A program made the translations under genes and the position numbers. Shown here one piece after another: positions 7,607 to 62,851 of a stretch of 64,000 nt of DNA. The stretch's first letter is position 1; each line of letters begins with the position of its first letter. The DNA comes from a virus. The stretch spans positions 22,608 through 86,607 of the IMG/VR virus record IMGVR_UViG_3300005613_000030; one strand, given 5' to 3'. Under the pieces are notes generated by a model, which was given only the letters and a program-made list of their open reading frames with translations, was not told where the DNA came from and did not search any database.

Positions 7607-7923
7607 TATGCAATAGAATCTGTGGAATATTATGTATACTACTAGTGATAGCTGCTTGCACATATGTGTTTATTAAAGGGCCTTCTATATATGATAAAGA
7701 AACTGTATTCTCTTATGGTCAGAAAGTTAAAGTGATAAAAGGATTTTATAAAGGTTATAACTGTTTCACTGTTCAGCATCAATACACTGATATACGCATA
7801 TTTACTACTGATAGATATTATTATGCCCTATCAAGCAAAGATAAGAATCTCAATATGATAATGGTATATGGCGATGAATTAGAATTAGAGGTTGATGGAG
7901 AACAATGTGATGCAATACAATAA
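7603..7923 (+). CDS. Membrane-anchored hypothetical protein
   Basis: N-terminal hydrophobic helix; GQKVKVIKGFYKG KOW-like motif. Confidence 0.5.
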   Translation: MICNRICGILCILLVIAACTYVFIKGPSIYDKETVFSYGQKVKVIKGFYKGYNCFTVQHQYTDIRIFTTDRYYYALSSKDKNLNMIMVYGDELELEVDGEQCDAIQ

Positions 7924-9049
7924 GCAATGCATTATTTGTAATAAAGATTTTGTATCGATGAGACGACATGCAAAAACATGCTCAAATATGTGTCGCAGTA
8001 GAGTTCATTCGAAGAAACATCGTAATAAGGTTATCATTAAATTGTGTGGTTATTGTAAAATAGAATTTTCATGCGGTGGACAGACACATGCTAAAAAATA
8101 CTGTTCTAAGAAGTGTAGAGATTCTAATAGATATATAGTCGATAAAAATAATCTTCATGAGCAGTTAAAGAAAACAATTAGATGTCGAGTAAATGACGCA
8201 TTAACTGATCGAGCAACTAGTTACTCTGTGGTTAAAAATCTAGGTTGCTCTATTAAGGAATTAAGGACGTATTTAGAATCTAAATTTACAGAAGGTATGA
8301 CTTGGGATAATCGGGGATATTACGGCTGGCATATAGATCACATTAAGCCACTAAGTAGTTTTGATTTAACTAACCCTGAAGAGCTTAAGAAAGCATGCCA
8401 TTATACCAACTTACAACCATTATGGGCAGAAGATAATTTAAAGAAAGGAAGTCAATGTGAAAGGCAATGCACCAATTGTAAGCAATCTTTTTATAGTAAG
8501 CAATATAATAAAAAATTTTGTTCTACAGAATGTCAAAAACGCCATTGGAATCTTAACAACAAAGAGCACAAATTAACTCTACAAAGAGAGTGGAGAAGAA
8601 ACAACCCAGATAAGGTGTTAAAAGATAGTCAAAGTTTAGGGCACAGTAAAGCAGTTAATAAATGGAAAAATAAAAACATAGAAAAGGTAAGACATTATAA
8701 TAATGAGTTTCATAAACGGCATCGACAAGAATCACCACAATATCGTATAGCTTGTAATATTAGGAGTCGTGTATCTAAGGTGCTACAAAAGAATATAAAA
8801 ACAGGCTCAGCGATAAGAGATTTAGGCTGCTCTATCTCAGACTTAAAGAAGCATCTAGAATCTCAGTTTACAGAAGGTATGTCCTGGGATAACTACGGCT
8901 CACATGGTTGGCATATAGATCATGTCAAACCGTTAAGCAGATTCAATTTAAATAATAAAGAACAATTTAAAGAAGCTTGTCATTATAGTAACTTACAACC
9001 ATTATGGGCAGAAGATAATTTAAGTAAAGGGGCAAAATATGACGAATAA
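7892..9049 (+). CDS. Tandem double HNH-like endonuclease (two Zn-finger plus nuclease modules fused)
   Basis: Two copies of LGCSI..L..(Y/H)LES.FTEGM.WDN.G..GWHIDH.KPL..F.L....ACHY.NLQPLWAEDNL.KG, each preceded by CxxC motifs. Confidence 0.85.
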   Translation: MMENNVMQYNKQCIICNKDFVSMRRHAKTCSNMCRSRVHSKKHRNKVIIKLCGYCKIEFSCGGQTHAKKYCSKKCRDSNRYIVDKNNLHEQLKKTIRCRVNDALTDRATSYSVVKNLGCSIKELRTYLESKFTEGMTWDNRGYYGWHIDHIKPLSSFDLTNPEELKKACHYTNLQPLWAEDNLKKGSQCERQCTNCKQSFYSKQYNKKFCSTECQKRHWNLNNKEHKLTLQREWRRNNPDKVLKDSQSLGHSKAVNKWKNKNIEKVRHYNNEFHKRHRQESPQYRIACNIRSRVSKVLQKNIKTGSAIRDLGCSISDLKKHLESQFTEGMSWDNYGSHGWHIDHVKPLSRFNLNNKEQFKEACHYSNLQPLWAEDNLSKGAKYDE

Positions 9050-10154
9050 ATGGATGTCAAAATTGACAAAAGATTTTGGTACGCTGGCTAGTGATTTACA
9101 TGAGCAACAAAATAAGGACATGGATCCTATTACATTAGATAGTCCATCGTTAAATTGGGCTGTTGGAAATGGTGGTTTTCTACCCGGTAAAGCAGTAATC
9201 TTATATGGTGCTGAAAGTGGTGGTAAGTCGCTTATTGCAATACTTACAATTATTGCTCATCAGAAAGCTAATCCAGATAGTATTCAAATAGTATTTGATG
9301 CAGAATATAGTTTTTCAACATCATGGTTTAAGAAGTTAGGTGGTAATTTGGATCAGTTGATTGTTAAGCAAACTAATGACCCTGTTAAGATATTTGACTT
9401 TATGTTTGAAGGCGGAGAATTACATGAGATGCTTCAAGATGGTTGTCCAGTTAACTGCGTAATGATAGATTCAATTAAATCAATTGTATGGCCGACTGAT
9501 ATAAAAAGTAAATCAACTAATATAACTATGGGTGGATCTGGATCTAAGTTTTTAGGATCAACACTTAAACGAATTCTTCCGGTAATCCGTGAATTTAATA
9601 TTTCTACACTCTTAGTGCAGCAAGTATACGAGGAGCTAGACCAATATAAAGCAATGAATAATCCTTATAAGATTCCCGATGGTCGGAATTTAAAGCATTT
9701 CGCTGACTACATGCTAGAAGTATCTAAGTTAGAAACTAAAGCCGGAAGAATAGAGGTAGGTAAAACTATGACTGGTTCAGCACAGCAAGTTGGTCATAAA
9801 GTTAGAGTGAAAATTAAGAAGAATCGCTGTGGTGCACCATATCGTGTAGCTGAATTTACATTGGATTATACGCAAGGCATTGCAAATACGGGTGAAGAGT
9901 TATTTGAATTAGCAAAATCTTTAGGTGTTATTTATCATCCAATTAATGAAGCAACTGGTAAATCCAATGTTCAAATGTGGCAATTTAGTAATTATGATGC
10001 TATTCGTGGAGAAGCGAATATAAAGAAATGGGTTGTTGAGCACCCTGAATATCATGCAGAAATAATAACTGCTTGTAACAGTGTCGGAGAAGAGATTGTA
10101 AATGCTAGAAATGAAAACATGGGGATAAATGACGATAAAATCGATCTTGGATAA
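9039..10154 (+). CDS. recA: RecA/UvsX-like recombinase
   Basis: Walker A GAESGGKS; FDAE; Walker B MIDS; KNR near the C-terminus. Confidence 0.9.
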   Translation: MTNKWMSKLTKDFGTLASDLHEQQNKDMDPITLDSPSLNWAVGNGGFLPGKAVILYGAESGGKSLIAILTIIAHQKANPDSIQIVFDAEYSFSTSWFKKLGGNLDQLIVKQTNDPVKIFDFMFEGGELHEMLQDGCPVNCVMIDSIKSIVWPTDIKSKSTNITMGGSGSKFLGSTLKRILPVIREFNISTLLVQQVYEELDQYKAMNNPYKIPDGRNLKHFADYMLEVSKLETKAGRIEVGKTMTGSAQQVGHKVRVKIKKNRCGAPYRVAEFTLDYTQGIANTGEELFELAKSLGVIYHPINEATGKSNVQMWQFSNYDAIRGEANIKKWVVEHPEYHAEIITACNSVGEEIVNARNENMGINDDKIDLG

Positions 10155-10470
10155 TATTATTGATCAAGCCCTTGATGCATATGAAGAAGGCTTTATTGCT
10201 AAGTGTATTTTGATACATCCAGTGCGATATCGCGAGTTATCACATGAATTACAGAAACGTAGTACGCGTAATAGTGTGCAGCATTGTGCGCCACAATATC
10301 AAGTTGTCTCACTTACACTACCGATGGGGCAAGTTGAATTAAAACTTGATAAAACAATCCCGCGTGATGGAGATGGTTTTTATATTGAGGGGCATAAAAA
10401 ACACATACTACATAAGATGCATCAGCAGGCTAATAAAATCTTATTAGGAGATATTGAAGATGAGCTTTAA
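10129..10470 (+). CDS. Hypothetical protein
   Basis: ORF overlapping the recA 3' end. Confidence 0.55.
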   Translation: MTIKSILDNIIDQALDAYEEGFIAKCILIHPVRYRELSHELQKRSTRNSVQHCAPQYQVVSLTLPMGQVELKLDKTIPRDGDGFYIEGHKKHILHKMHQQANKILLGDIEDEL

Positions 10471-10918
10471 ATACCATAAAATAAAGAATTTCTTATCAAT
10501 CGCAAAAGCAGTCGCAGAACAATCTCCTGATGCTGAAACTAAAGTTGGAGCAATATTAGTAAAAAATACTACTAATGCAGTTATAGCAACTGGGTTTAAC
10601 GGTTTTGTTCGTAAGGCACCGGATAAAAAGCTACCAAAAACTCGTCCTGATAAATATGAATATATGATTCATGCAGAAGTAAATCTAATTTTTAATTGTG
10701 CAAAAGAAGGCATTTCTACGGAAGATACCACTCTAATATGCACTATGAGTCCTTGTGAAAACTGTATGCGCGCATTATGGCAATGCGGTGTAACAAGAGT
10801 GGTCTGTGATAAACTATACACTGACCATGAAGATAATAAAGGTCTAAAAGATTTAGGATTAAAAGTACATAAACACGATTCATATTATATATTAGATTTT
10901 ATTGCTAAGGAGAAATAG
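10460..10918 (+). CDS. dCMP deaminase
   Basis: KVGAILV, TGFNG, HAEVN and SPCENC zinc-deaminase motifs. Confidence 0.9.
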   Translation: MSFKYHKIKNFLSIAKAVAEQSPDAETKVGAILVKNTTNAVIATGFNGFVRKAPDKKLPKTRPDKYEYMIHAEVNLIFNCAKEGISTEDTTLICTMSPCENCMRALWQCGVTRVVCDKLYTDHEDNKGLKDLGLKVHKHDSYYILDFIAKEK

Positions 10919-10920
10919 TT

Positions 10921-11910
10921 ATTAAAATATTATTTATAGGTGATCTACATTTAAAGATGAATAGATTTGATCTATCAGTTAATTGCCTCAAATGGATAGA
11001 AGACATCATTGATCTTCATAATCCTGATATTGTTGTCAATTTAGGTGATACATTTGACGGCCACAGTGTACTTAGATCTGAATTATTATGTGAATTTAGA
11101 AACCATATACAACGCATAAATAAACCACATTATTATATTCTAGGTAATCATGATTTTTTTAGACCAAAAGACAGTAAGTATCACGCTTTACAAGTGTTTA
11201 AAGATTATCCAGAATTTTATGTTATTGATGAACGTTGTGATATAGATAACATGACAATGGTTCCGTATATCGCAGATCTTAATAATTTTCCCTTAGACAC
11301 CAAAGAGATATGTATAGCTCATCAGACTTTTATTGGTGCAGATTATGGATATCATCGTCCAGATGCTGGAGTAAATGCGGATAATGTGTCAGCTGACATA
11401 ATCATTAGTGGACACGTGCATAAAAAGCAAGAGTTTGGAAAAGTTATTTACCCAGGTACACCATATGCGTGCGGTGCAAATGATTTAGATATGACTAAAG
11501 GGTTATTAATATTCGACACTAAGAGTTATGAACAGACTTTCATAGAATCTCCTTTTCCGAAATGGAAATCAATTGAATTCATTATTAGTAATGAACAAAC
11601 AATGAGTGACTTACACAGTATATTAAAAGAGACTATAAATGAACAAGATCATTGGATAATAAAAGTTGCTGGCCCTAAAGTTGAAATGTCAGCTTACTTT
11701 AAAAGTGCTCAATATAAGAAAATATCTAAAGGTAAGCATATTACTCTTAAATTAACAGCAACTGATAAAGAGAAAAAACAAGTAAGAATTAAAGCAGTTT
11801 CTACTCCAGATATAATTAAAGAGTACATTGATAAAGTATATAAAGGTACAATTGATAAAAAACAATTAGAATCTAAGGCCTTAGAGATCATTACAGGTCA
11901 AAACAAGTAA
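10921..11910 (+). CDS. SbcD/Mre11/gp47-like recombination nuclease; ATT start inferred
   Basis: IKILFIGDLH lies in frame upstream of the ATG at 10957; LGDTFD, GNHD, AHQ, SGHVH and YPGTP motifs. Confidence 0.85.
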   Translation: MKILFIGDLHLKMNRFDLSVNCLKWIEDIIDLHNPDIVVNLGDTFDGHSVLRSELLCEFRNHIQRINKPHYYILGNHDFFRPKDSKYHALQVFKDYPEFYVIDERCDIDNMTMVPYIADLNNFPLDTKEICIAHQTFIGADYGYHRPDAGVNADNVSADIIISGHVHKKQEFGKVIYPGTPYACGANDLDMTKGLLIFDTKSYEQTFIESPFPKWKSIEFIISNEQTMSDLHSILKETINEQDHWIIKVAGPKVEMSAYFKSAQYKKISKGKHITLKLTATDKEKKQVRIKAVSTPDIIKEYIDKVYKGTIDKKQLESKALEIITGQNK

Positions 11911-11953
11911 AATTAGCAATGATTATGGTATAATAGCTATAAGGAGTTCAGCA

Positions 11954-12412
11954 ATGAATGAGTTAGATAGTAAAACACAACAATCAGTTGATCATTGTAG
12001 ATGGCTAATGAATAGCGGTCTTGCAAATGACACTATTAAAAATCAATTGATTACTTATGGTGCAATTACTCATCCTGATATACAAGCGGTTGAATTAACA
12101 GTGGATTTTGAAAATAAAACAGTATTTTACAGATTGTATATAGATTCTAAACTTCTCAATAAGGTTGATAAATTCAAAGAGTTATCTAAAGCTACAAAAT
12201 TTTGGGGCTTATATAAATTTAAGAGATTACTTAAAAAGGAAGGCAATTTGAATTTTAATAGTATTTTAGATAAATTTATTAAAGACTATTGTGGATTACA
12301 ATGGAAAGCTGAGGTTGATATTTTGAATCTTAGTGAATATGATGACAAAGGATACGAGGATAGTAATGAGAGCGTTAACTTCAGTGACGAAAAAGATAAA
12401 CCTGTTAACTAA
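11954..12412 (+). CDS. Hypothetical protein
   Basis: ORF behind a TGGTATAAT promoter and SD aaggag. Confidence 0.6.
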   Translation: MNELDSKTQQSVDHCRWLMNSGLANDTIKNQLITYGAITHPDIQAVELTVDFENKTVFYRLYIDSKLLNKVDKFKELSKATKFWGLYKFKRLLKKEGNLNFNSILDKFIKDYCGLQWKAEVDILNLSEYDDKGYEDSNESVNFSDEKDKPVN

Positions 12413-12743
12413 TGATGAAGATCTAAGACAGGAACTGTGGCTGTATTATTTAGAGGGAAATCCTTTTGATACACTCTCAGAGCATTTCAATGTACTAAAA
12501 CGACGCATCCCAGAACAGAAATCAATTGATCGAATAGCATATGATCTAATAAAATCCCCTCTTTCAGATAATACAGCTAAAACTCTTCAGTACCTTACAG
12601 AATTAGAAAAGTCCATAATATTAATGTTATTATTAGATAGAGATCTTAGTGATATCTCAAAAGAAAAAAATATCAGTGAAATAAAAGTACAACAAATGGT
12701 TAATAATATAAAAAGAAATTCTAACTGGAATAGGATAGAATAA
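12366..12743 (+). CDS. Small sigma-factor-like protein (region-2 remnant plus region-4 HTH)
   Basis: DEDLRQELWL and LTELEKSII...LSDISKEKNISEIKV. Confidence 0.5.
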   Translation: MRALTSVTKKINLLTNDEDLRQELWLYYLEGNPFDTLSEHFNVLKRRIPEQKSIDRIAYDLIKSPLSDNTAKTLQYLTELEKSIILMLLLDRDLSDISKEKNISEIKVQQMVNNIKRNSNWNRIE

Positions 12744-13354
12744 TGGCACTAAAGAAAAAATTCACAGATGAGGAAATAGTTGGATTGACTCAAGAAGAAA
12801 TTAAATTAGGGTTAAAGTACTTGAGAAAACATAAAACAGCAGGTGCGGTTCCTGATGTAGAAGCGCTTAAACTATACGAAATGTATCTTATCGGCTGTAC
12901 ATTTACCGAGATTAGTAAGCAATACCCACAATATGAGTTAGGACAGATTATATTAACTGCTGCAATTCGAAAATGGGGTATGGATCGTGATCGTATGCAA
13001 TGTACTTTAAAAGATAGGGTACAGGCTAAAGTTGTTAAATCCGTAATTGAGCAAGTAGACTTTTTAACATCTATGTTAAGTGTCAGCTCTGCTGAACATA
13101 TTGAAGCAATGCGAAATTACATAATCAACCCGGATAAGTATCCTAAACCTGATATGAGAATAGCATCAATTAAAGAGTACAAAGATGTAACTGAAACTTT
13201 ATATAAAATTGTGTCAGGAGCAACTAGTAATTCTAAGTCTTCACCCATGTTTGGTGCATTAGGTTCAAAGCAACCACAACAAAAAAAGATAGAAGAAAAG
13301 AAAAAAGACTATGATATAGATTTAGATGATATAGAGATCGACAGTGATAAATAA
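12743..13354 (+). CDS. Candidate terminase small subunit
   Basis: HTH-like N-terminal region and helical body; directly upstream of TerL apart from an HNH gene. Confidence 0.45.
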   Translation: MALKKKFTDEEIVGLTQEEIKLGLKYLRKHKTAGAVPDVEALKLYEMYLIGCTFTEISKQYPQYELGQIILTAAIRKWGMDRDRMQCTLKDRVQAKVVKSVIEQVDFLTSMLSVSSAEHIEAMRNYIINPDKYPKPDMRIASIKEYKDVTETLYKIVSGATSNSKSSPMFGALGSKQPQQKKIEEKKKDYDIDLDDIEIDSDK

Positions 13355-14039
13355 GAAGTTATGTAGTAAGTGTGATAAATTAAAGCAGCTTTGTGAATTT
13401 ACAGCTCGTAAAGATGCTAAAGACGGATTACGTGCAGATTGTAAGGTGTGCCGTAATCAACATAACTTAGAATATTATTATAGTGAAAAATCTAATAGGC
13501 ATAATTGTTGTAAATGCAATACTGATCTTAATCTAGATACACAGCGCGTGCATAAAACATTGTGTCAGTCATGTTATAGAAAACAAGAAAGAGCTATAGT
13601 GAGTCAAAGAAGAGACAAAACTTGTATAGACTGCAAGTCGAGTTCATCTACTAAGTGGTATAATGGACCAACTTGTAGAAAATGCTATCGTGCATCTAAT
13701 TATGCTAAGCACCGTGAAAAAACAAGTGAAGTATATAGGAACAAACGAATTAAAAATAATTTACGGACAAGATTAAATATGGCAATTAAGAATAATCAAA
13801 AAGTAGGCTCAGCAGTTAAAGATTTAGGTTGTTCAGTTGAAGAATTAAAGGCTTATTTAGAATCTAAATTTACAAAAGATATGACTTGGGATGACTATGG
13901 TAAATGGCATATAGACCACATTAAACCGCTAAGTAGTTTTGATTTAAGTAATCCTGAAGAACTAAAGAAAGCATGTCATTATAGTAACTTACAACCACTA
14001 TGGGCTAAAGATAACTTAAAGAAAAGTAATAAATATTGA
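13344..14039 (+). CDS. HNH-like endonuclease with multiple CxxC zinc fingers
   Basis: WHIDHIKPL...ACHYSNLQPLWAKDNLKK cassette. Confidence 0.85.
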   Translation: MINKKLCSKCDKLKQLCEFTARKDAKDGLRADCKVCRNQHNLEYYYSEKSNRHNCCKCNTDLNLDTQRVHKTLCQSCYRKQERAIVSQRRDKTCIDCKSSSSTKWYNGPTCRKCYRASNYAKHREKTSEVYRNKRIKNNLRTRLNMAIKNNQKVGSAVKDLGCSVEELKAYLESKFTKDMTWDDYGKWHIDHIKPLSSFDLSNPEELKKACHYSNLQPLWAKDNLKKSNKY

Positions 14040-16484
14040 GACCAATATGCAAAAAAAAGTAACAAAATCTACTAAAAAGAAGAAAAAGACCTTAAAGGAT
14101 CTATCGATTGCACAGCGTGAAAAGCTTTTTTTTAAGAAATGTAAAACTAAACAGGAATTAAGTCGATGGATTAAGACTTTTCTCGGTTTATATATGCCAG
14201 ATGAAGTAGTATCTAGGTTTGCTGATTGTTCTCCATTAGATATGATATGGGAATTGTATGATATATGTGTCAATTGTAGTAATCCAGACAATATCATGGA
14301 AATATTGTTTGTTGCTGGTAGAGGATCAGGTAAAACATTAGGGTGCGCAATAGCAGAATTTATGATATTAATGCATGACCGCAGAGATGCAGTACACGTT
14401 GGAGCAGTTATGGCACAGGCTAAGCGTTGCTATGATTATCAGGTCAAATTCATGTTAAACGCAAATGTTAAATCGATAATAGATAATAGAGATAAACACG
14501 AAAGCGATAGAATAATACAAAAAATGAATATGGAGAAATCTATATTTAATTTTGATGGAGAGCAAGTTTCGCTAGAAATTTTACCATGTACATTAAAGGC
14601 ATTAAATGGTCCGCACGTACCATTAGTAACTATTGACGAAATTGACACTGTTTCAGGTGAAGGACTAAAAGCTTTTCGTGAAATTTCTGGTATGCTAGAT
14701 TCTAAAGGTGGAAAAAGAGCACTTAGAGTTGGTATTTCTACGAGAAAATCTAGATATGGATTAATGAATAAACAGATTGAAAACGCAGAAGAAGAGGGAA
14801 GAACTGTTCGCCGATGGACTGCATTAGAGTTCTCACAAAGATGTCCAGATTCTAGATCGGGAACAACACCCACAGTTGCATATACTATGTTAGAAGATAT
14901 GGAAATGATATCAGCTGAAGAATATAAGCGTAAAAATGCAAAGAAAAAACGAGAATATACGCAGGTAACTTTACCTGGAGAGAATTGTCTTACTTGTCCA
15001 GCTGCAGCTATATGTTTAGGTGATGCAAAAAAGCAGAAATCAAAATCGTGGATGCTTAAACCAATTGATGAGTATATACAGAAAGTTCGCTCAGAAGGTG
15101 CAGATTGGGCATTATCTCAATTAATGAACTTAAAGCCGTCATTAGAGGGCGTTATCTATAAAGAATTCGATCCTAGAATTCACGTTAAAACTTGGAACGA
15201 GATGTGGCTTCGTTTAGTAGGTAAAGAGTTTCCAGGTGAATGTACTCATGATATCTTTGTTAAGAAATGCCATCAATTAAAAATACCTTGTTACGGTGGA
15301 ATTGACTGGGGATGGAGTAAACCATCTACTATTACTTACGCTTTTATTGATAAACGAGATAATGTTTATGTTGTTAAAACAGATGGTATGACTTTTGTTT
15401 CAGATCCAGAATGGATCCATTATATAAAGCATAAATATCATAATATATATCGTCCACAACTATACTTCCCTGATCAAGCTAGTCAAGGATCTGTTATTGA
15501 GATGAGAAAAGCTGGTCTACTGTCACACTGTGATCCACATAAACCAGATGTAAATCCTGGGATACAAGTTATAAAGAAGTTGCTCCGTGTTCCTGGTTCA
15601 GCTGATACAAAGATTGTCTTAGCGAAAGAAACATGTCAATCATTAATTAACGAATTTGGCTTATATCACTTTAAGACATCAGCTGATGGAACTATATCTA
15701 ACATGATTGATACAGAGAATGATCACTGGCTCGATGGATTACGCTATATACTACATGAATTATTAGGTAAAGCACAGTTTTTATATACTGGTGAAGCATA
15801 TTCAGGCGATAATAAAGTAACAGATCAAGATGGTAATTTTTATCATGCACCAAATGCCGAAGAATATGCAAAAGTGATGGGTATTCAAGTAAACATTAAT
15901 GAAGAGGATATATCTAAATTAGGTAAAATTGGTACCTTAAACGACTTAGATGATGATGACGATGACGATGGTAGTGGTATGTTATGGAATTTTTAAATGC
16001 TTAATAAAGTATGTATAATGTGTGGTAATTTATTTAATGGATATGGTAGCAGTAATACTTGTTCATTGACCTGTAAAGACACACGTAGAAAACATAAACG
16101 ATTGCTAGCACAGCGTGCATGGAGAAAAGCTAATCGCGATAGAGATCGCAATAATTACAGGATATGGGAGCGTAAACAGTTAATCAACAACATACAGTAT
16201 AAAATAATCAGTAGATTACGGATTAGATTATGTAAGGCTATAGAGATACATCAAAAAGGCGGTTCAGCAGTTAAAGATTTAGGTTGTTCAGTTAATAAAT
16301 TAAAAATCCATTTACAACTTAAGTTTTATAGACGACATAAGAATGGTGAAATCATGTCTTGGGATAACTATGGCTTACACGGCTGGCATATAGACCACAT
16401 TAAACCGCTAAGTAGTTTTGATTTAAGTAATCCTGAAGAACTGAAGAAAGCTTGTCATTATAGTAACTTACAACCACTATGGGC
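13905..16484 (+). repeat. 101-bp direct repeat (13905-14005 and 16384-16484, 2 mismatches) flanking terL
   Basis: Nuclease-cassette DNA of the two HNH genes compared by eye. Confidence 0.85.
14047..15996 (+). CDS. terL: Terminase large subunit
   Basis: Walker A AGRGSGKT; Walker B VTIDEID; RNase H-like GIDWG and FPD; ENDHWLDGLRY; Cys-rich insertion. Confidence 0.92.
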   Translation: MQKKVTKSTKKKKKTLKDLSIAQREKLFFKKCKTKQELSRWIKTFLGLYMPDEVVSRFADCSPLDMIWELYDICVNCSNPDNIMEILFVAGRGSGKTLGCAIAEFMILMHDRRDAVHVGAVMAQAKRCYDYQVKFMLNANVKSIIDNRDKHESDRIIQKMNMEKSIFNFDGEQVSLEILPCTLKALNGPHVPLVTIDEIDTVSGEGLKAFREISGMLDSKGGKRALRVGISTRKSRYGLMNKQIENAEEEGRTVRRWTALEFSQRCPDSRSGTTPTVAYTMLEDMEMISAEEYKRKNAKKKREYTQVTLPGENCLTCPAAAICLGDAKKQKSKSWMLKPIDEYIQKVRSEGADWALSQLMNLKPSLEGVIYKEFDPRIHVKTWNEMWLRLVGKEFPGECTHDIFVKKCHQLKIPCYGGIDWGWSKPSTITYAFIDKRDNVYVVKTDGMTFVSDPEWIHYIKHKYHNIYRPQLYFPDQASQGSVIEMRKAGLLSHCDPHKPDVNPGIQVIKKLLRVPGSADTKIVLAKETCQSLINEFGLYHFKTSADGTISNMIDTENDHWLDGLRYILHELLGKAQFLYTGEAYSGDNKVTDQDGNFYHAPNAEEYAKVMGIQVNINEEDISKLGKIGTLNDLDDDDDDDGSGMLWNF

Positions 16485-16518
16485 AGAAGATAATTTAAAG
16501 AAAAGTAATAAAGTATAA
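15997..16518 (+). CDS. HNH-like endonuclease
   Basis: Same conserved nuclease cassette with an N-terminal CIMC..CSLTC finger. Confidence 0.85.
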   Translation: MLNKVCIMCGNLFNGYGSSNTCSLTCKDTRRKHKRLLAQRAWRKANRDRDRNNYRIWERKQLINNIQYKIISRLRIRLCKAIEIHQKGGSAVKDLGCSVNKLKIHLQLKFYRRHKNGEIMSWDNYGLHGWHIDHIKPLSSFDLSNPEELKKACHYSNLQPLWAEDNLKKSNKV

Positions 16519-16552
16519 TAAATAAAGAAAATATATATAAGAGGGAGTACTT

Positions 16553-18484: not shown

Positions 18485-18512
18485 AAAAGGGTCACTTCGG
18501 TGACCCTTTTTT
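18485..18512 (+). terminator. Intrinsic terminator after the portal gene
   Basis: AAAAGGGTCAC-TTCG-GTGACCCTTTTTT. Confidence 0.9.
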
Positions 18513-18559
18513 ATTTCACAATAGTATAATGTTTCCATGTATAAAAACACTAGGAGATT

Positions 18560-18757
18560 ATGATACCGCAGACACATACGAGTATAACGATTTGTAGCTT
18601 ACCATTATTATTTACTATATTTTTTATTCTATTGAAATTTACTAACTACATATTGTGGCCATGGTTTTGGATATTATCACCAATGTGGATGTCCTTTATA
18701 TTGATCGTATTACTTATATTGATTCATTTAAGTATTTTTATATATAAAAGCGTATAA
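18560..18757 (+). CDS. Small membrane protein
   Basis: Two hydrophobic segments; WPWFWILSPMW motif common in small phage membrane proteins. Confidence 0.6.
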   Translation: MIPQTHTSITICSLPLLFTIFFILLKFTNYILWPWFWILSPMWMSFILIVLLILIHLSIFIYKSV

Positions 18758-18767: not shown

Positions 18768-19508
18768 ATGTTTGACGAATCAGATTACATTAAGAAGGGA
18801 AATCATAAATATTTTAAAGCTGTTTGCAATACTTGTGGTAAAGACAGAGGATATCAGCGATTATCTAGTGTAATTCGAAACTGTTTATCATGTGCTACAA
18901 AGAAGAGATTATCTGATCCTAAAAATAACCCTATGTATGGTAAAAAACATAAAAATACAGCGCAGTTCCGCAAAGATACATATAGCAATGTTGATTATAG
19001 TGATACTAAAATACGTTACAGTAAAAATGGTAATAAGTGTATTACCTATAAACAAAGATGTCCAATATGCAATAAAAGCGTTGGATATAGGCGTCATATT
19101 GATGCTAAACGCACATGTCGAGCATGTCAAAGCGATAAGTTACGTAAATACTCTAAAGAACATAAACGAATACGTTACTCAATGAAAGCTAATTTACACT
19201 CTAGGCTGAAGCAGCATTTAATTAATAAGAATAAGAAATCTACGTTCGATATATTAGGGTATACTGTAAATGACTTAAAAATACACTTAGAATCACTATG
19301 GGAACCGTGGATGTCTTGGGATAATTATGGCGCTTATTGTTCATATAAAAGAACATGGCAAATTGATCATATTAAACCAGATAGTTTATTTAATTATGAA
19401 TCGATAACAGATCCGGAATTTAAAGAGTGCTGGAGTTTAAGTAATTTACAACCCTTAGATAGCTTTAAGAACTTAAAAAAAGGCAACAAATATAATAAAT
19501 CAGTATAA
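18768..19508 (+). CDS. HNH-like endonuclease with Zn fingers and NUMOD3-like motif
   Basis: NNPMYGKKH; WQIDHIKP...CWSLSNLQPL...NLKKGNK. Confidence 0.85.
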   Translation: MFDESDYIKKGNHKYFKAVCNTCGKDRGYQRLSSVIRNCLSCATKKRLSDPKNNPMYGKKHKNTAQFRKDTYSNVDYSDTKIRYSKNGNKCITYKQRCPICNKSVGYRRHIDAKRTCRACQSDKLRKYSKEHKRIRYSMKANLHSRLKQHLINKNKKSTFDILGYTVNDLKIHLESLWEPWMSWDNYGAYCSYKRTWQIDHIKPDSLFNYESITDPEFKECWSLSNLQPLDSFKNLKKGNKYNKSV

Positions 19509-19546
19509 TTATATTGTAAAGATAATAATCACAATAAGGAAGATAT

Positions 19547-21685: not shown

Positions 21686-21708
21686 GGGTAATAAACAATG
21701 GAGCCAGT

Positions 21709-21966
21709 GTAACTTTTTGGTCAATAATTGGATGGATAGCTGCTTTAGCTGGCTTATTTTATCCACTTCCACAAGTAAAAAAATGTATTAAATATCGTAG
21801 TGCTTTAGGTATTAGTCGATATTTTTTATTTTTGTGGTTAATAGACAAAGCATTAACATTAGCATTAATGATCCATATGGATAATACAGCAATGATAGTT
21901 AAATATGGATGCGGATTGGTGTGCGTGTTGATAATCATATACTTTAAGTTTTTTGGAAATAAGTAA
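21709..21966 (+). CDS. PQ-loop/SemiSWEET-family membrane protein (missed by the ORF track; no canonical start)
   Basis: Manual translation: TFWSIIGWIAALAGLFYPLPQVKKCIKYRSALGISRYFLFLWLIDK...YFKFFGNK*. Confidence 0.7.
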   Translation, partial: VTFWSIIGWIAALAGLFYPLPQVKKCIKYRSALGISRYFLFLWLIDKALTLALMIHMDNTAMIVKYGCGLVCVLIIIYFKFFGNK

Positions 21967-22033
21967 CTTATATTACTACTTATAATTTATAGGTTGTATC
22001 TCTGATATAATATTTTATGGATAGGAGTGTTAT

Positions 22034-22576
22034 ATGGCTAAAACTTGTGAAATTTGTTCAAGAGTCATATGTGAATTATCAAAACAAAAAAAGTATTGCT
22101 CTAAGCAATGCCGTGCTGTAAAAAAAATAATTACAGCTAAACAATGGAATTTACAGAATAGTGTAAAACATGCAGCACATCAGGAAAAATGGCGTAAGAA
22201 TAATAGAGAATTAGATCGCATTAGATCTTTAGAAAGTAAAAAACGAGCTACAGTTAAGCAGAAATTAAAAACAAGAATAGCAACTAACCTGCGCAGTCGT
22301 ATTCGTAAGGCTCTTCAAAAAGAGCAAAAAACAGGTTCAGCAGTGAGAGATTTAGGCTGTTCTATTGTGGATTTTAAGCAGCACTTAGAATCTAAATTTA
22401 CAGAAGGTATGACATGGGATAACTACGGTAGAAATGGCTGGCACATAGATCACATCAAGCCATTAGCTAGTTTCGATCTTGAAGATCTTGAAAAGTTTAA
22501 GAAAGCTTGTCATTATAGTAACTTACAACCCCTTTGGGCTAAAGATAACTTAAAAAAGAGTGATAAATATGAGTAA
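22034..22576 (+). CDS. HNH-like endonuclease
   Basis: CEIC..YCSKQC finger plus the conserved cassette. Confidence 0.85.
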   Translation: MAKTCEICSRVICELSKQKKYCSKQCRAVKKIITAKQWNLQNSVKHAAHQEKWRKNNRELDRIRSLESKKRATVKQKLKTRIATNLRSRIRKALQKEQKTGSAVRDLGCSIVDFKQHLESKFTEGMTWDNYGRNGWHIDHIKPLASFDLEDLEKFKKACHYSNLQPLWAKDNLKKSDKYE

Positions 22577-53161: not shown

Positions 53162-53353
53162 TTAATCTTCAGTATTTAGCAAACTTGCATCTATAAGTAT
53201 ATCGATATCTACAGGTATATCGCCTTCTGTTTTATATTCGCTCCATGGTAACTCTGAGATAACATCACGTAAAAACGCTTTCATTGTACATTTACTATAA
53301 CACCGCGCATAATAAATATGCTTATATAGTTTTGGCGTTTCTTTAATTTCCAT
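53162..53353 (-). CDS. Hypothetical protein
   Basis: SD aggag. Confidence 0.5.
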   Translation of the reverse strand: MEIKETPKLYKHIYYARCYSKCTMKAFLRDVISELPWSEYKTEGDIPVDIDILIDASLLNTED

Positions 53354-53361: not shown

Positions 53362-54147
53362 CTAATATTTGTTACTTTTCTTTAAATTATCTTTAGCCCA
53401 TAGTGGTTGTAAGTTGCTTAATGCATTTACTTTTTCTATATCAAAGCATTTATTCTTAATGAACCAATCAATTGGTTTGATATGGTCTATATGCCATTTG
53501 CCATAGTTATCCCAAGTCATACCTGTAGTAAATTTAGACTCAAAGTGCATTTTAAATTCTTGCCAAGTATAGCCTAATATATCTTTTGTCTTTCGATTAG
53601 CCTTAACAAATCCACCTTTCTTGCATACATTAGTCATATTACTGCTAAATATTTTTCTAATTTTTTGGCATTCAAGATAATATGCTCTATTATCTTTAAC
53701 GTATCTACCATTGTTAATACCAGATCGTTTATTATTTTTAAACGAGCATTTTCTACATTGTGCAGCTGTAGTTGTCTTTTTATTACCACATTGAGGGCAC
53801 ACACTATTACCCGTCCAAGCAGGGTTTTTATTACCCATTTTGTTATTAGATCTTACTATTTTTAAGCATATACCACAATATTTACGCTTACTAGGAATAG
53901 TAATACTACATATATTACATTTACCCTGCATAACCTGCGCTTTCCCATATTTCTCACTAATTATATATCCTTGCTTTATAGAAAAACACTTTCGACACAA
54001 ACCAGATCCATTAATACAATCTCGATATTGCTTTAAATGCTCTCTTTTGCAATTATCGCATTGAAACCATACTTTCTTGCCACTACCATTAGATAGTGTT
54101 TTAATATCAATTTTTAGATCTTTAAGAGTTTTATCAATATTAATCAC
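53362..54147 (-). CDS. HNH-like endonuclease with multiple Zn fingers
   Basis: GSGKKVWFQC zinc ribbon; WHIDHIKP...NLQPLWAKDNLKKSNKY. Confidence 0.85.
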   Translation of the reverse strand: MINIDKTLKDLKIDIKTLSNGSGKKVWFQCDNCKREHLKQYRDCINGSGLCRKCFSIKQGYIISEKYGKAQVMQGKCNICSITIPSKRKYCGICLKIVRSNNKMGNKNPAWTGNSVCPQCGNKKTTTAAQCRKCSFKNNKRSGINNGRYVKDNRAYYLECQKIRKIFSSNMTNVCKKGGFVKANRKTKDILGYTWQEFKMHFESKFTTGMTWDNYGKWHIDHIKPIDWFIKNKCFDIEKVNALSNLQPLWAKDNLKKSNKY

Positions 54148-54887
54148 TACTTACCCATCATTTTCTCAACAATTTTGAAACTTCTTTCATAAATATGCAA
54201 TGAATCAGAGCTAAAAGTGAAAGTACCAATAGATAGATCTTCATAACTATCTTTTAATTCATTCAACATCGTTTCTTGTAATCGAATAAAGAACGGCCAA
54301 TCGTAAACCACTCCAAAGTGTAAATCTGAACTACGCATGCGAACTGTAAAATTTAACTTATTATCTCTAATATGAAAATTAGAATACATAGTACATACAA
54401 AATCTTTATTACCAACATAACAATGCTTTGGCTTATTAAAACGCATAATAGCTTGACGTGTGTCTTTATCTCTTAATAATGATATTTTTGCCCATTCAAA
54501 AGGAGTACGTAAGCAATCTGGATTAGGTTCCATTACTGGCCAACCTTCAGATTCATCCTGTAACACTAAGTGCCCATAGTTAGAATTAATAGTTCCATCA
54601 GGGTTAGCGAGTTGTCCCCAAAACTTAGATATTTTAACGGCATCTTCTACATCTCTAGATCCACTTAAATACCATTTCATTTCATTTTTAGTGTAACGAT
54701 CGATGACACTGTTTCGTTCAGTATCTTTAGTTATGATTGACTCAGACTTAGGATTTAAGATCATAACTTGATAATTCATCTTTTCTCTAATTGCCATCCC
54801 ACGCGGTGAGCACATAAATTCTGGATTATTATATACATCTGCCAAAGTTCCTAAATATGCCTCATGTATATTGTTATATCTCTTCAC
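54147..54887 (-). CDS. Thymidylate-synthase-family enzyme with dCMP-hydroxymethylase (T4 gp42)-like signature
   Basis: INSNYG, DFVCT, RSSDLHFGVVYD and SLHIYE motifs. Confidence 0.8.
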   Translation of the reverse strand: MKRYNNIHEAYLGTLADVYNNPEFMCSPRGMAIREKMNYQVMILNPKSESIITKDTERNSVIDRYTKNEMKWYLSGSRDVEDAVKISKFWGQLANPDGTINSNYGHLVLQDESEGWPVMEPNPDCLRTPFEWAKISLLRDKDTRQAIMRFNKPKHCYVGNKDFVCTMYSNFHIRDNKLNFTVRMRSSDLHFGVVYDWPFFIRLQETMLNELKDSYEDLSIGTFTFSSDSLHIYERSFKIVEKMMGK

Positions 54888-58268: not shown

Positions 58269-58605
58269 TGATTTTATTAGCTATTTCAAGTAGTTTTCTC
58301 TTAGGGATTTCTTGACAACCAACTTGTGCCCCTGTTAATGAAAAATATATATCATAACTTTCGCTTAACTGCATTTTTCGCGTACCAAATATAAATTCTA
58401 ATAACATTGTTTCAGGTTTAACTACGTTTATCTCATGTAGGCATACCATGCATTCCCATCCATCAAACCATTGTATACGATAACGATATGAATAATCGCT
58501 TTGCTTTTCTATATCACTAATTACTCCATAAACACCTTTTACTGAATCATAGTGTGATCGATTAGTGGAAACTACAAAATCTCCAATTTTTAATTTACGG
58601 TTCAT
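58240..58605 (-). CDS. Hypothetical protein (SH3-like beta barrel)
   Basis: LKIGDFV...GVI...YRIQW. Confidence 0.5.
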   Translation of the reverse strand: MNRKLKIGDFVVSTNRSHYDSVKGVYGVISDIEKQSDYSYRYRIQWFDGWECMVCLHEINVVKPETMLLEFIFGTRKMQLSESYDIYFSLTGAQVGCQEIPKRKLLEIANKINELYGEYND

Positions 58606-59243
58606 ATCTCCTCCCTTAATTCTTCAAGTGTCATTTTGTTCCAATATCGTCTATGTTTAACTCTAATTAAATCTTTTAATTCAGTCATACCATTAGCTTT
58701 AGCGAGCTTAACAATAAATGAGATATTTTTTTGATAATACTCTATTTCATCAAGTATTAAAGCTCTACGCAATTCATCGGCGGTTCTAAATTTACGTAAC
58801 CATTCTTCTGTACTTAACATGGCATTATCAACTAATTCTTTTTTAGTCATAGTAGACGCCATATATTTACATTGATCAAGAGGAAAGCCTTCAAATACGT
58901 ACTCGTTTCGTTCAATTCTTTGTCGAGTGATTTTAGCTAATAATAATTTTTCTTGATCTTCTGTTATCTTAGATGTTCCCACTATTTCCCCTATTACCTT
59001 TGCTGATACATATTTAGTAAATTGTTTTTCTGATACTTTTAATTTGCCATAATATGCTTTAGCTTCTTCTCTTAGTTTAAATTCAAGTTGCTCTGATATG
59101 GGTAATATGATTGAAATTGTTCCATCTTTATTTAATGTATGTAATTCATCGCATCCACAATAAGAGCATACTTTTAATTTCATATTTTTATACGTTCGTG
59201 AACAATTAATGCAATATTTTTTCATCTCTATTCTCCAATTCAT
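58602..59243 (-). CDS. Hypothetical protein with N-terminal Zn ribbon
   Basis: CINC..CSYCG. Confidence 0.55.
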   Translation of the reverse strand: MNWRIEMKKYCINCSRTYKNMKLKVCSYCGCDELHTLNKDGTISIILPISEQLEFKLREEAKAYYGKLKVSEKQFTKYVSAKVIGEIVGTSKITEDQEKLLLAKITRQRIERNEYVFEGFPLDQCKYMASTMTKKELVDNAMLSTEEWLRKFRTADELRRALILDEIEYYQKNISFIVKLAKANGMTELKDLIRVKHRRYWNKMTLEELREEI

Positions 59244-59772
59244 CGTTGTCTTCTACTAAATATAAATGCGACTTCTTTGATGGTTTAACATCATTAGATA
59301 CTGATGCACTGTGTACATCTTTTAATTGATCTAATACATCTTTTAATGAGCGTGTTTTAGTTGTGCCATCTTCTAATAGAATCTGTACCTCTGGATTATG
59401 GCCGCTATCTAATATCTCTTTAATGATTTTTTGTCGTTTTAAATCTAATTCTCTCATCTGCCTAACAATATCATTCTTATATTTAGAGTGAGCAGCATTT
59501 TTACTAGGCTGATTGCATGCTGCTTGTAATTGTAGCATTTGTTCAGATATTTCTCTTACTTTTTGAAACTTAATCTTTGTGTTGATTGTCGATAAAGCTT
59601 CGTCTTCACTTTTATTGTTAGTTTTATTATCAGTTTTAAATTTATCTAATAATTTTGTTAATTGTTGTCGTTGCCTACGAATAGATATGGTAGCATAAAA
59701 ATACATTGCAAATAATGTAGCTATTGAGCTAACAATAGCTGTAATCACCAATAATAAGATATTCATTTCCAT
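59206..59772 (-). CDS. Membrane-anchored coiled-coil protein
   Basis: N-terminal TM helix. Confidence 0.55.
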   Translation of the reverse strand: MEMNILLLVITAIVSSIATLFAMYFYATISIRRQRQQLTKLLDKFKTDNKTNNKSEDEALSTINTKIKFQKVREISEQMLQLQAACNQPSKNAAHSKYKNDIVRQMRELDLKRQKIIKEILDSGHNPEVQILLEDGTTKTRSLKDVLDQLKDVHSASVSNDVKPSKKSHLYLVEDNDELENRDEKILH

Positions 59773-59910
59773 TTCTTCTCCTTTTTTATATAAAAATCGA
59801 ATCGGTTATGATTAAATATGTCACGTTTAAGAAAATATGCTTGTCGAGTGTCAGGTATGACACCTAATTTAAGAAACAAATCAACAAACACACATACAGT
59901 GTAATAAGGA

Positions 59911-60500
59911 TTATTTTCTTGCTCTTTCCCGGCAAAAAATCGCTTCAATTTCGCCAATATGAACTGGACGAAGCCACGCATCATACCCCACATGGATACT
60001 CCTGCCATTTAATCTCTCCTTTGAATGTGTATGCCCATGAATTAGCCAACCACCTTTATCTACTGGGCAAGCGTCTCTAAGTCTATACCATTTCTTATGT
60101 TTAATTCGATATTTTAAATTTCCCCACCAACTTATTCTATAAGGATAGTGACATATTTTGACTCTTTCACCAGCAATATCCATTTCTAACGAATCACAAG
60201 AGAATGAAAAACCCTGTGACATAGCTTGAAAATGCGATGATTTATCATGGTTTCCTCTTATTCTGATTTTACTACCATTAATTCGTGATAAAATTAGTTT
60301 AGTTTGCTGAGTACCACAGAAAAATACATCTCCAACGATAACTAATGTATCATTGGGCCAACAACTTTATTAATACGTTTAATTATTTCTTCGTCATGAT
60401 CTTCAACATCTAATCCGGGTCTATCAGGGCAAAATAGCTTAATATTTTTATGGCAAAAGTGTAAATCACTAATAAACCACACGTGATGACTTCGTTTCAT
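59911..60500 (-). pseudogene. Calcineurin-like phosphoesterase split by a 1-nt frameshift near 60345-60365
   Basis: 5' frame MKRSHHVWFISDLHFCH...KVVGPMIH*; the -1 frame continues PNDTLVIVGDVF...RGNHD...CHYP...IHGHTH...VGYD. Confidence 0.75.
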
Positions 60501-60517
60501 AATTCTCCCTTAAACTT

Positions 60518-60672
60518 AATAGTGAGGGCTTTCCACCCTCTCGCTGGGTTTGGTACACATGAGTCAGTCACCTACTCTTTTACACTGATTACAGTAACCT
60601 TGCGGGATTTGTTTCCACCAGACTATTGAGATGCTGTCTTGACCATAAAGGAATATAGGCAACATCTCTCAT
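60518..60672 (-). ncRNA. Putative structured RNA or leader of unknown family
   Basis: GC-richer intergenic tract behind a GTATAAT promoter, with several nested helices, two GNRA tetraloops and two UGGAAA motifs. Confidence 0.55.
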
Positions 60673-60690
60673 AATAATATTATACTGATT

Positions 60691-61155
60691 TTATTTCCAA
60701 ATAGGGCGTAAGTTAGTGTAATGACATATTTTATTGAATTGTTCTTGTGTGGTTAATTCTAGATTAGATAAAGAAATGCAATAATCTATATACCATTGAC
60801 CGTGATTACTCCAAGTCATTGGTTCATGTGTTGTCGGATGGGGAAAAAATTGATCTGATAACGAACTCTTAAGTTGAATTATATCATAATCAAGGTTTTT
60901 TAATAAAACTTTAAGTTTATTATCATTATTAATGGATTTGTTGAGTTGACTTCTAAAGCGTTTAATTTGCTTGATATGAGCATCAGCCTGTCTATGTTGC
61001 CAATGTACCTTGTTGCGGTCACGTGTACTCTCTAAGTTGCCAAATCGCTTTAAAGAGGCGCATGATCGACATAGCCCATCTATATTGGCTTTAGTTTTAT
61101 GTCCACGGCAATCACCGCAATTAGAACAGAATGCTTTATATTTTTTCGTTGTCAT
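60691..61155 (-). CDS. Degenerate member of the HNH cassette family
   Basis: WYIDY replaces WHIDH; truncated at LRPIWK*. Confidence 0.7.
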   Translation of the reverse strand: MTTKKYKAFCSNCGDCRGHKTKANIDGLCRSCASLKRFGNLESTRDRNKVHWQHRQADAHIKQIKRFRSQLNKSINNDNKLKVLLKNLDYDIIQLKSSLSDQFFPHPTTHEPMTWSNHGQWYIDYCISLSNLELTTQEQFNKICHYTNLRPIWK

Positions 61156-62053
61156 TAATCAATTCTACTAATTGATTATCTGTTAAGGTTTCTAAGGTCT
61201 TAGCTAATTCAGGATTAGAATCATATGCGTGACTTCGAAGCAGTGTCAAAAAGTCGCCTAATTCTAGGCCAGACTTTTGAACTACTTCTTTTAATTGCTT
61301 GATATATTGATTCATTGCTTTAGCATTTTTAAATTCTTTAGTTACCATTTCACCAGTCTCTGGGTGTTTATGGGTATATTTAACTGGATTAGCTGCAGAT
61401 TTTCTTTTCATGTTGTTAGCTTCTTTTTGTGCAGCGCTTGGACCAGAACCGCCATATTTCTTAGTACGATTCATTGATTGAATTCCAGTGTTTTTATCAG
61501 TAATTATATTCTTGGCTTTTCTTTTGACATTATCTGCTGTTGTATAGCCTTTATAATTAGATTTTTCTATATCATCTGATTTCTTCATTTTTTTACGCTT
61601 ATTCCAATCTGCTAGCTTTTTACTATCTACAGTATGACGTCCACGATTTAATTTCTCTGGCACTGCTCTTGTATTAGACGCTGCATATCCTTTATTATTA
61701 TCTTTACGATCAGGGGATAACTTTTCGCCTGTTTTTTTCTCAGCAGATTGTATTTGCTTAACTATAGATTTTCTAGTTCCACGCCCAGATGACTTATGCG
61801 ACGACGTAGGTGTATCACCATTTTGGCGACGCAGTGCATCGTCGGCCTTTGTCTGAGCTCGCTGCCAATGACCTGGAGTTTTTTTAGCTGTCTTTAATTT
61901 CTTCAAACAGGCTGAACATCGACCAGATGGATTACTAGAATTAGCGCTTGACTTACCACACCTAGGACATGCTTTTTCTAGAGGCTCAATAGCCTTAACA
62001 TCTTCAAGTAATTCTTCTAATATTTCTAGAGATTTATTAAGATCATTTTTCAT
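61136..62053 (-). CDS. Basic putative capsid-internal polyprotein with Zn-finger/HNH-like module
   Basis: LNKS, LEKA, MKKS, IEKS and VQKS sites; CPRC...CSAC; LSPDRKDNNKGY...N. Confidence 0.5.
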   Translation of the reverse strand: MKNDLNKSLEILEELLEDVKAIEPLEKACPRCGKSSANSSNPSGRCSACLKKLKTAKKTPGHWQRAQTKADDALRRQNGDTPTSSHKSSGRGTRKSIVKQIQSAEKKTGEKLSPDRKDNNKGYAASNTRAVPEKLNRGRHTVDSKKLADWNKRKKMKKSDDIEKSNYKGYTTADNVKRKAKNIITDKNTGIQSMNRTKKYGGSGPSAAQKEANNMKRKSAANPVKYTHKHPETGEMVTKEFKNAKAMNQYIKQLKEVVQKSGLELGDFLTLLRSHAYDSNPELAKTLETLTDNQLVELINDNEKI

Positions 62054-62687
62054 ATTTATTGCCTTTCTTTAAATTATCTTTTGCCCATAGTGGCTGTAAG
62101 TTACTATAATGACATGCTTTTTCTAATTCTTTAGGTTTTAATAAATCAAAACTAGCTAATGGCTTGATATGATCAATATGCCATTTGCCATAATTGTCCC
62201 AAGACATGCCTTTTGTAAACTTAGATTCTAGATGTGACATTAACTCTTTAAAAGAACAACCTGTTAATGTCTGTGTATTTTTATGTTTAATTCTACCCTT
62301 AAGAAAATCATACAACCTTGATCTTAAATTATGAGCAATTTTATATAATGGATCTTTGCGTTTTTTAGCATAATACTGATTTTCATAATCTCGATTTTTA
62401 TGTCGCCATTCTTGAACTTGTTTCTTTATTTGCTTTTTATGGGCACTATAGTATTCGCGTCGGTATTGCTTTTGATCCCAATTAGTCGTTCTTTCCCATC
62501 GCTCTCTATAGCAAGTAGAGCATAAACCGCTCTTATTAACTCTACCTGATAAGGTTACGCTGCATTCCTGACATTCATTTACAATTTCAATAGGCTCTTT
62601 ATGACCACCTTCTACTACATGGCGATAATGAGTTCGACACCATCCTCTTGCATATATTTTTTTATTACAGTTATTAACACTGCACAT
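62043..62687 (-). CDS. HNH-like endonuclease (start at 62687)
   Basis: CSVNNC...ARGWCRTHY finger plus the conserved cassette. Confidence 0.85.
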   Translation of the reverse strand: MCSVNNCNKKIYARGWCRTHYRHVVEGGHKEPIEIVNECQECSVTLSGRVNKSGLCSTCYRERWERTTNWDQKQYRREYYSAHKKQIKKQVQEWRHKNRDYENQYYAKKRKDPLYKIAHNLRSRLYDFLKGRIKHKNTQTLTGCSFKELMSHLESKFTKGMSWDNYGKWHIDHIKPLASFDLLKPKELEKACHYSNLQPLWAKDNLKKGNKYEK

Positions 62688-62689
62688 AT

Positions 62690-62851
62690 TTATTCCCACG
62701 ATGCAAAGCTTGTAAGCCATATATTAAACCAATCTACAGCCGCGAACTGTTCATAAAACACTTTAAAACTAGTTACTTGAGTTCCATTTTTATGAAATAT
62801 AGCCCAACGACATGTACCAACTTTCTTCAACTTAAACGGATGTTTATTCAT
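62690..62851 (-). CDS. 53-aa hypothetical protein (not in the ORF track)
   Basis: SD aaggt; MNKHPFKLKKVGTCRWAIF...FASWE*. Confidence 0.5.
   Translation of the reverse strand: MNKHPFKLKKVGTCRWAIFHKNGTQVTSFKVFYEQFAAVDWFNIWLTSFASWE

Follow-up and report, generated by a model that had tools for sequence, protein, structure and literature searches.

Predicted free-standing homing endonuclease genes of the HNH type at conserved gene junctions of an uncultured phage

Eight genes with a common nuclease cassette

The DNA analyzed in the present study (the window) is a stretch of 64,000 nucleotides (nt) that corresponds to bases 22608-86607 of an 86.6-kb virus record (IMG/VR, IMGVR_UViG_3300005613_000030), the completeness of which is estimated at 51%. 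It is AT-rich (30-37% GC) and densely coded, and its genes lie mainly on the same strand. Eight of its open reading frames (ORFs) share a C-terminal nuclease cassette, and an alignment confirmed this family at the positions given in a preliminary description of the window. We consider these ORFs, with a probability of approximately 0.8, to be free-standing homing endonuclease genes (HEGs) of the HNH/His-Me-finger superfamily.

All eight are stand-alone ORFs in intergenic sites between conserved genes and have the same orientation as their neighbors, among which are the genes for UvsX/RecA, TerL, the portal protein, and the prohead protease as well as a thymidylate-synthase-like gene. In window coordinates, they are as follows (aa, amino acids):

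7892-9049, + strand: tandem-fused double HNH gene with two Zn-ribbon plus nuclease modules; cassette matches at aa 97-187 and 291-383
13344-14039, + strand: HNH gene at site A (between g12743 and terL); its GTG start overlaps the stop of g12743
15997-16518, + strand: HNH gene of site B, flanked by terL and portal; its ATG directly follows the terL stop
18768-19508, + strand: HNH gene at site C (between portal and the thymidylate-kinase-like g19547), with an N-terminal domain of its own
22034-22576, + strand: HNH gene of site D, flanked by g21209 and the prohead protease gene; its stop overlaps the protease ATG at 22569
53362-54147, - strand: HNH gene directly downstream of a thymidylate-synthase/dCMP-hydroxymethylase-like gene (54147-54887)
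60691-61155, - strand: degenerate HNH copy, in which WHIDH has become WYIDY and the C-terminal DNLKK helix is gone
62043-62720, - strand: HNH gene upstream of the conserved g61136; its stop overlaps the g61136 ATG (62053)

The proteins consist of a variable N-terminal part, with zinc ribbons and a predicted helical DNA-binding region, joined to the conserved nuclease, the aligned block of which reads LGCS..ELK.HLES.F..GM.WDNYG.WHIDHIKPL..F.L....ACHY.NLQPLWA.DNLKK. The 53362 product carries an N-terminal treble-clef zinc finger (PF14311), and the two halves of the 7892 gene form an internal DNA repeat (76% identity over 211 nt). When the whole record was searched with one of the family members, nine modules were retrieved, all of them within the window and two of them in 7892-9049.

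In an alignment of 68 sequences, 62 of which were database relatives, D139, H140, N163, P166, and K175 were invariant and H137 and N172 nearly so. The D139-H140 pair, with the histidine expected to be catalytic in an HNH/His-Me finger, lies on the strand that spans WHIDH (E136-140), while the conserved asparagines are N163 in NLQPL (strand E164-168) and N172 in DNLKK (helix H169-175). In the AlphaFold2 model of the 22034 product (pLDDT 87), a strand-strand-helix (beta-beta-alpha) arrangement extends over WHIDH, NLQPL, and WAKDNLKK. The invariant catalytic positions are kept in eight of the nine modules. The cassette is interpreted as an H-N-N form of the classical HNH motif that lacks cysteines (WHIDH ... 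NLQPL ... DNLKK). It matched phrog_1035 ("endonuclease VII") and phrog_28061 and did not match PF02945 (Endonuclease_7), and a sequence profile search of the PDB returned nothing relevant. The family is large, comprising 39,412 representative clusters at E<=1e-3.

Occupancy of the sites in related phages

A megablast search with 10 kb of the window against 50,697 phage records gave no match at the DNA level, and tblastn with TerL retrieved distant relatives only, such as the TerL of Myxococcus phage Mx1 (27% identical). Since many related TerLs are encoded on contigs of 160-180 kb, the phage is a member of a large family of uncultured phages of ~170 kb. Loci around TerL, RecA, g61136, and the thymidylate-synthase-like gene were taken from viral and metagenome contigs, and the window proteins were mapped onto them. 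Approximately 20 related contigs (L numbers below), with TerLs 46-65% identical to that of the window, were compared; a metagenome scan contributed L029 and L031 as the only new loci. A reconstructed empty site B and the g61136 start were also used as exact patterns to scan viral contigs, and neither was matched (0 hits). The occupancy of the four sites around the terminase, portal, and protease genes was as follows:

Site A (g12743 / terL): this cassette in the window, L001/L003/L029, and L015; a second HNH type in L002 and L010; empty in L004-L009, L012, L016, and L031
Site B (terL / portal): this cassette in the window, L001/L029, L010, and L015; no other occupant; empty in L002, L004-L009, L011-L014, and L031
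Site C (portal / g19547): this cassette in the window, L015, and L031, decayed in L001/L029; no other HEG type recorded
Site D (g21209 / protease): this cassette in the window, L011, and L029; an Endonuclease_7 gene (PF02945) in L007; empty in L004, L005, L008, and L031

The site upstream of recA, which holds the double gene in the window, is empty in L004-L008, L016, L029, and L031. This site and those around g61136 are empty in every relative seen, with the 60691 HNH gene being absent from L021-L025. At sites A-E, G, and H, the relatives carry an HEG of this or another type or none at all, and the mobility attributed to the HNH genes in the preliminary description is supported by their variable occurrence at shared intergenic positions. 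In the empty alleles of site A, g12743 and terL overlap by 1-23 nt. At site C, the L015 copy is 51% identical to the 18768 product over aa 8-242, and the N-terminal domain is common to the same-site copies in three other lineages, as expected of a HEG that stays at one site.

Other genes were observed at the same junctions. The second HNH type (VDHIIPL...NLQLL...DNLKKGN) occupies site A at L002:1622-2149 and L010:3372-3908, and the Endonuclease_7 gene of site D lies at L007:16003-16545. The TerL gene itself is interrupted in frame by LAGLIDADG inteins, of which there are three in L015 (1795-7251) and one in L014 (27-2795). One intein, common to L014 and L015, is located at the position of residue 408 of the window TerL, which has none, and many database TerLs of ~1,000-1,070 aa carry intein Pfam domains. 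In L011 (6064-7191), the site-D HNH protein runs on for ~150 residues that include a P-loop (GQSGVGKTT), a kinase-like fusion or the result of a lost stop codon. In L009, an IMP dehydrogenase/GMP reductase gene (4747-5931, - strand; PF00478, E 8e-97) lies reversed at site C, with portal and the g19547 homologue as its neighbors.

The number of copies also differs. The nine modules of the window compare with one in each of two complete 176-kb relatives, that in one of them being a 67-aa fragment (L019). At the DNA level, the window cassettes are 70-86% identical over 150-300 nt, within the 3' nuclease part only and up to the stop codon, while the eight paralogues are 26-59% identical over their full length. 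In a tree of the cassettes, 13344 groups with 15997 (77% aa identity) and the second module of 7892 with 22034 (72%), and not with the same-site copies of the relatives. The proposal of an HNH family expanded in this lineage is supported by these counts and by paralogues that are closest to each other, with weak support in the tree. Decayed copies are represented by 60691, which is the weakest match to the cassette, contains a TAA within the match, and has the longest branch of the tree, by the frameshifted site-C copy in L001/L029, and by the L019 fragment; they are consistent with a cycle of invasion, decay, and loss. The sporadic occupancy of fixed sites, the competition with other endonuclease families, and the decaying copies are together the mark of free-standing HEGs.

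Terminase-associated HNH proteins of the HK97 gp74 type are encoded beside terminase and portal genes and have a role in packaging. The HNH proteins of the window may likewise be working parts of the phage, acting as packaging factors or as nucleases for the breakdown of host DNA or the exclusion of competitors. Two copies flank terL and one of them precedes portal, the catalytic residues are intact in eight of the nine modules, and the nucleases of HEGs may help their carrier in phage-phage competition (PMC10448857). However, the majority of the relatives, with the complete genomes that have one copy or a mere fragment among them, have empty sites A and B, so that none of these genes is required for packaging and the cassette is not a conserved terminase partner. 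Moreover, nine paralogous modules spread over other loci, with differing DNA-binding N-termini and with decayed copies among them, fit selfish turnover better, and we regard a function of this type as improbable.

Expression signals of the neighbors and flanking repeats

The 3' ends of the HNH genes lie where they had been placed, with stops on the ATGs of recA (9039), the protease gene, and g61136, at a distance of 7 nt from the ATG of terL and 8 nt from that of the small ORF at 53353, or at GTATAAT boxes. A stop close to the next ATG was rejected as a trait specific to the HNH genes; 55% of the non-HNH junctions in this genome have a gap of <=8 nt or an overlap, and the arrangement is therefore ordinary here. 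The start of the site-A HNH gene overlaps the stop of the gene upstream, at the place where terL begins in the empty alleles, and in L002 and L015 the site-A HNH stop overlaps the terL ATG (TAATG). Promoter-like words within or next to the HNH genes are as follows:

13656-13664, + strand: extended -10-like box TGGTATAAT inside HNH 13344, ~390 nt upstream of terL; candidate embedded promoter
16513-16519, + strand: -10-like box GTATAAT to which the final codons of 15997 (K-V-stop) contribute; the portal ATG follows after 34 nt
19503-19509, + strand: -10-like box GTATAAT on the 18768 stop, 38 nt before the g19547 ATG
60685-60679, - strand: GTATAAT box, 5 nt past the stop of 60691

The word TGGTATAAT occurs just 6 times on the + strand of the window. 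As read from its sequence, the box at 16513 is a candidate embedded promoter for the displaced portal gene; GTATAAT also precedes portal in both the empty and the filled site-B alleles of relatives. The earlier proposal of an insertion into the expression signals of the neighbors is therefore supported by nested, overlapping ORFs and by -10 boxes at the 3' ends, a pattern that has already been described for the seg and mob genes of T4 (PMC2988022).

Several features of the surrounding DNA were recorded. A strong hairpin terminator (18485-18510, with a T run) and a GTATAAT box (18524) are present in the interval 18485-18754, between portal and HNH 18768. The same interval holds a small ORF of ~66 aa, very hydrophobic in its product and ending in ...YKSV*. 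This ORF was considered as an HNH remnant and rejected because it is hydrophobic and has no similarity to the cassette; the pair of ...KSV* ends that had been taken for an eroded repeat is a coincidence. Between g21209 and HNH 22034, there is a 348-nt gap without a called ORF (21686-22033). The g12743 product (12743-13354) is 51-65% identical in all relatives but one, and its gene overlaps the start of terL in HEG-free relatives; family model searches with g12743 returned no match, and its position suggests that it encodes the small terminase subunit. The g61136 product (61136-62053, - strand) has 305 aa, compared with 158-219 aa for its homologues in L021-L025; the surplus of ~100 aa is a lysine-rich stretch at approximately residues 174-254. 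In L021-L025, the g61136 homologue directly follows TGGTATAAT-N6-7-ATG with no HNH gene, which is a leaderless or short-leader arrangement.

The preliminary description had further noted short direct repeats around several of the genes and proposed a new mode of mobility that produces target-site duplications. All of the repeats that it quoted are present; 15997 is bracketed by the 11-mer TAATAAAGTAT at 16002 and 16506, and 62043 by the 10-mer AATAAATATG at 62694-62685 and 62060-62051. The word CAATGTGA in the double gene was rejected as a boundary repeat, being an 8-mer in different frames and of background frequency. For each gene, we obtained the longest word common to its start and end windows (-20..+40, 60 nt each). 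The HNH genes averaged 7.25, compared with 6.34 in a set of 68 other genes (Mann-Whitney p=0.17), and an enrichment of flanking repeats was not upheld. Against composition-matched shuffles, six of the eight genes were at or below expectation, while the 11-mer at 15997 (P=0.006) and the 10-mer at 62043 (P=0.007) exceeded it, so that only these two genes stand out.

The start of one HNH gene paired with the end of another matched equally well, with an off-diagonal mean of 6.8 and a maximum of 11 (13344 start with 22034 end), and real non-HNH starts paired with HNH ends gave words >=10 nt in 4.8% of pairs. The family-wise probability of two or more genes with words >=10 nt was 0.009 against composition shuffles and ~0.05 with real gene starts as the background, the latter being our own arithmetic from the 4.8% rate. 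Twelve HEGs in relatives yielded flanking words of 5-9 nt (mean 6.6, background 5.9), the sole 9-mer of which, TATAATAGA, is a TATAAT promoter word.

The position of the words within the genes is also informative. The right-hand word always lies within the conserved tail K-K-[SG]-[ND]-K-[YV], where AGTAATAAATAT, AGTAATAAAGTA, GGCAATAAATAT, AGTGATAAATAT, and AGTAACAAATAT are homologous, and it is therefore a sequence of the element, not a duplicated target. The left-hand words have varied offsets, falling at the end of g12743, within 15997 at codons 2-6, and within the long form of 62043 at codons 10-12. In a comparison of the paralogues of the window at the DNA level, no 5' end or flank shared among the HNH copies was found, and since their homology is limited to the 3' cassette, there are no defined element termini. 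The flanking repeats are not target-site duplications; for the most part, they are words that arise by chance in DNA this rich in AT. A/T-rich words (AAT AAA, which encodes Asn-Lys; GTATAAT) would recur at the HNH N-termini, in the conserved tail, and in the start and promoter signals of the phage; in the most economical reading, the N-terminal M-x-N-K, the C-terminal N-K-Y/V, GTATAAT, and the start contexts draw on shared A/T words.

A non-transposase mobile unit that enters loci by microhomology or short duplication where a start or promoter signal resembles AATAAA(T/G)ATG is, in our estimation, slightly less probable than a working function of the proteins. Such a unit may integrate as a circle in a Campbell-type manner or through the illegitimate repair of double-strand breaks, leaving repeats of 8-11 bp and regenerating the signal of the displaced gene. 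The two repeats that exceed the shuffles speak for it, as does the rarity of their words, with TAATAAAGTAT being present twice and AATAAATATG three times in the window. At site B, the removal of the insert and one repeat leaves the terL stop, 12 nt, GTATAAT, 34 nt, and the portal ATG, which is similar to the empty alleles. The repair of double-strand breaks at microhomologies has, moreover, been published as an idea for the ectopic invasion of T4 introns (PMC2988022). Nevertheless, six of the eight genes are at chance, mismatched pairs and the HEGs of relatives behave as described above, the right-hand copies are an inherited tail common to all paralogues, and the length of the repeats and their offset from the ORF ends differ from case to case without a common 5' terminus. 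A restricted form, in which only 15997 and 62043 entered their sites by recombination at a 10-11-bp word, with the tail ...AATAAA[GT]AT... matching the start or promoter signal of the target and the word being left at either end, would allow the family to spread inside a genome by microhomology capture of translation and promoter signals, beside ordinary homing between genomes; the chance that we assign to it is just as slight. These two insertions may be the youngest-looking of the set.

Probable homing endonuclease genes in an HEG-dense lineage

Under the interpretation as HEGs, intronless homing would be the means of spread. During a mixed infection, the nuclease may nick or cut the conserved neighbor gene of an HEG-less phage, with the genes for UvsX/RecA, TerL, the portal, and the protease and the thymidylate-synthase-like gene as candidate targets, and recombinational repair would then copy the HEG and its flanks into the HEG-less genome. 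At the level of the lineage, the family may have multiplied by the joining of new N-terminal modules to the constant nuclease cassette, and the cassettes have probably also undergone gene conversion with one another. The surviving insertions would be those that spare their neighbors, being nested between translationally coupled genes with overlapping starts and stops; alternatively, the last HNH codons may carry the -10 box for the next gene.

The closest parallel is provided by phage T4. Its seg and mob genes are intergenic cassettes that lack promoters of their own and contain promoters for the genes downstream; segA is located at uvsX, and segD lies between the capsid genes 23 and 24 (PMC2988022). 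As with the HNH genes mobA-mobE and the GIY-YIG seg genes of T4, of which mobE lies at nrdA/nrdB, the HNH genes of the window are intergenic, co-oriented with conserved essential genes, present in many copies per genome, and sporadic among relatives. T4 endonuclease genes use upstream transcription and have the promoter for the displaced downstream gene inside the endonuclease ORF, to which the candidate boxes may correspond here. In contrast, the window cassette belongs to another HNH subfamily, being C-terminal and cysteine-less (H-N-N) with N-terminal zinc ribbons, and the phage lineage is unrelated to T4.

HEGs have been shown to cluster near terminase, structural, and replication genes, to expand within lineages, and to swap domains (Barth et al., 2023; PMC10448857). 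The lineages rich in T5orf172 and IPA-HNH HEGs, among them ICP1-like and other phages, resemble the window in this expansion and clustering, and also in the combination of a homologous nuclease with unrelated DNA-binding regions and in tandem or duplicated modules, whereas their nuclease family differs from the window cassette (PMC10448857). A similar comparison applies to F-CphI and other HEGs with the Endo VII motif (DHHRN), which are free-standing phage HEGs with a C-terminal His-Me-type catalytic domain (PMC6083498). The window proteins match PHROG 1035, and a true PF02945 gene lies at site D of L007; the window motif, WHIDH...NLQPL...DN, is nearer to the classical PF01844 HNH than to D-H-H-R-N.

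Several results weigh against the interpretation as HEGs. The best structural matches to residues 109-180 of the 22034 model were HNH domains of Cas9, in keeping with the assigned superfamily, and they were weak (Z 4.4, root-mean-square deviation 3.1-3.2 A, 62-63 residues); the top ranks in Foldseek were all HNH-type nucleases, but also weak (E>0.5; none at E<=0.001). With the Pfam model PF01844, 15997 alone matched, at 18.1 bits below the cut-off of 21.4, and an NCBIfam search of the HNH proteins returned no match. The relatives are distant, with the closest TerL in a collection of 5.8 billion proteins being 73% identical and most being 59-66%, and the best pairs of filled and empty alleles among the fetched loci had 65-76% DNA identity (alignments >100 nt), which is too diverged for an analysis of the junctions. 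The cassette tree (93 columns) is poorly resolved and has no starred branch, and expansion within the genome and concerted evolution by gene conversion are inseparable by these data. The 11- and 10-nt repeats at 15997 and 62043, which beat composition-matched shuffles both singly and family-wise, are only loosely explained.

Least probable among the explanations considered is that the copies are relics of an old burst of HEGs, now immobile and tolerated for the signals that serve their neighbors, since the low full-length identity of the paralogues, the clearly dead 60691, and -10 boxes at 3' ends that would favor retention, as argued for T4 segG and gene 32 (PMC2988022), are set against catalytic positions kept in eight of nine modules and a cassette DNA identity that suggests ongoing selection or gene conversion.

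Taken together, the pattern is a known phenomenon in a new, HEG-dense case, and the novel insertion mechanism proposed for it is without good evidence. The two unexplained repeats, if real, would bear on how free-standing HEGs reach new loci. With ~39,000 clusters and no Pfam or NCBIfam model above the threshold, the cassette will be missed by annotation pipelines. Beyond the T4 and ICP1 models, the window offers a clean case of high HEG density. In its family of uncultured phages, at least four kinds of selfish nuclease, namely, this cassette, the second HNH type, Endonuclease_7, and the LAGLIDADG inteins, compete for the same few terminase, portal, and protease junctions.

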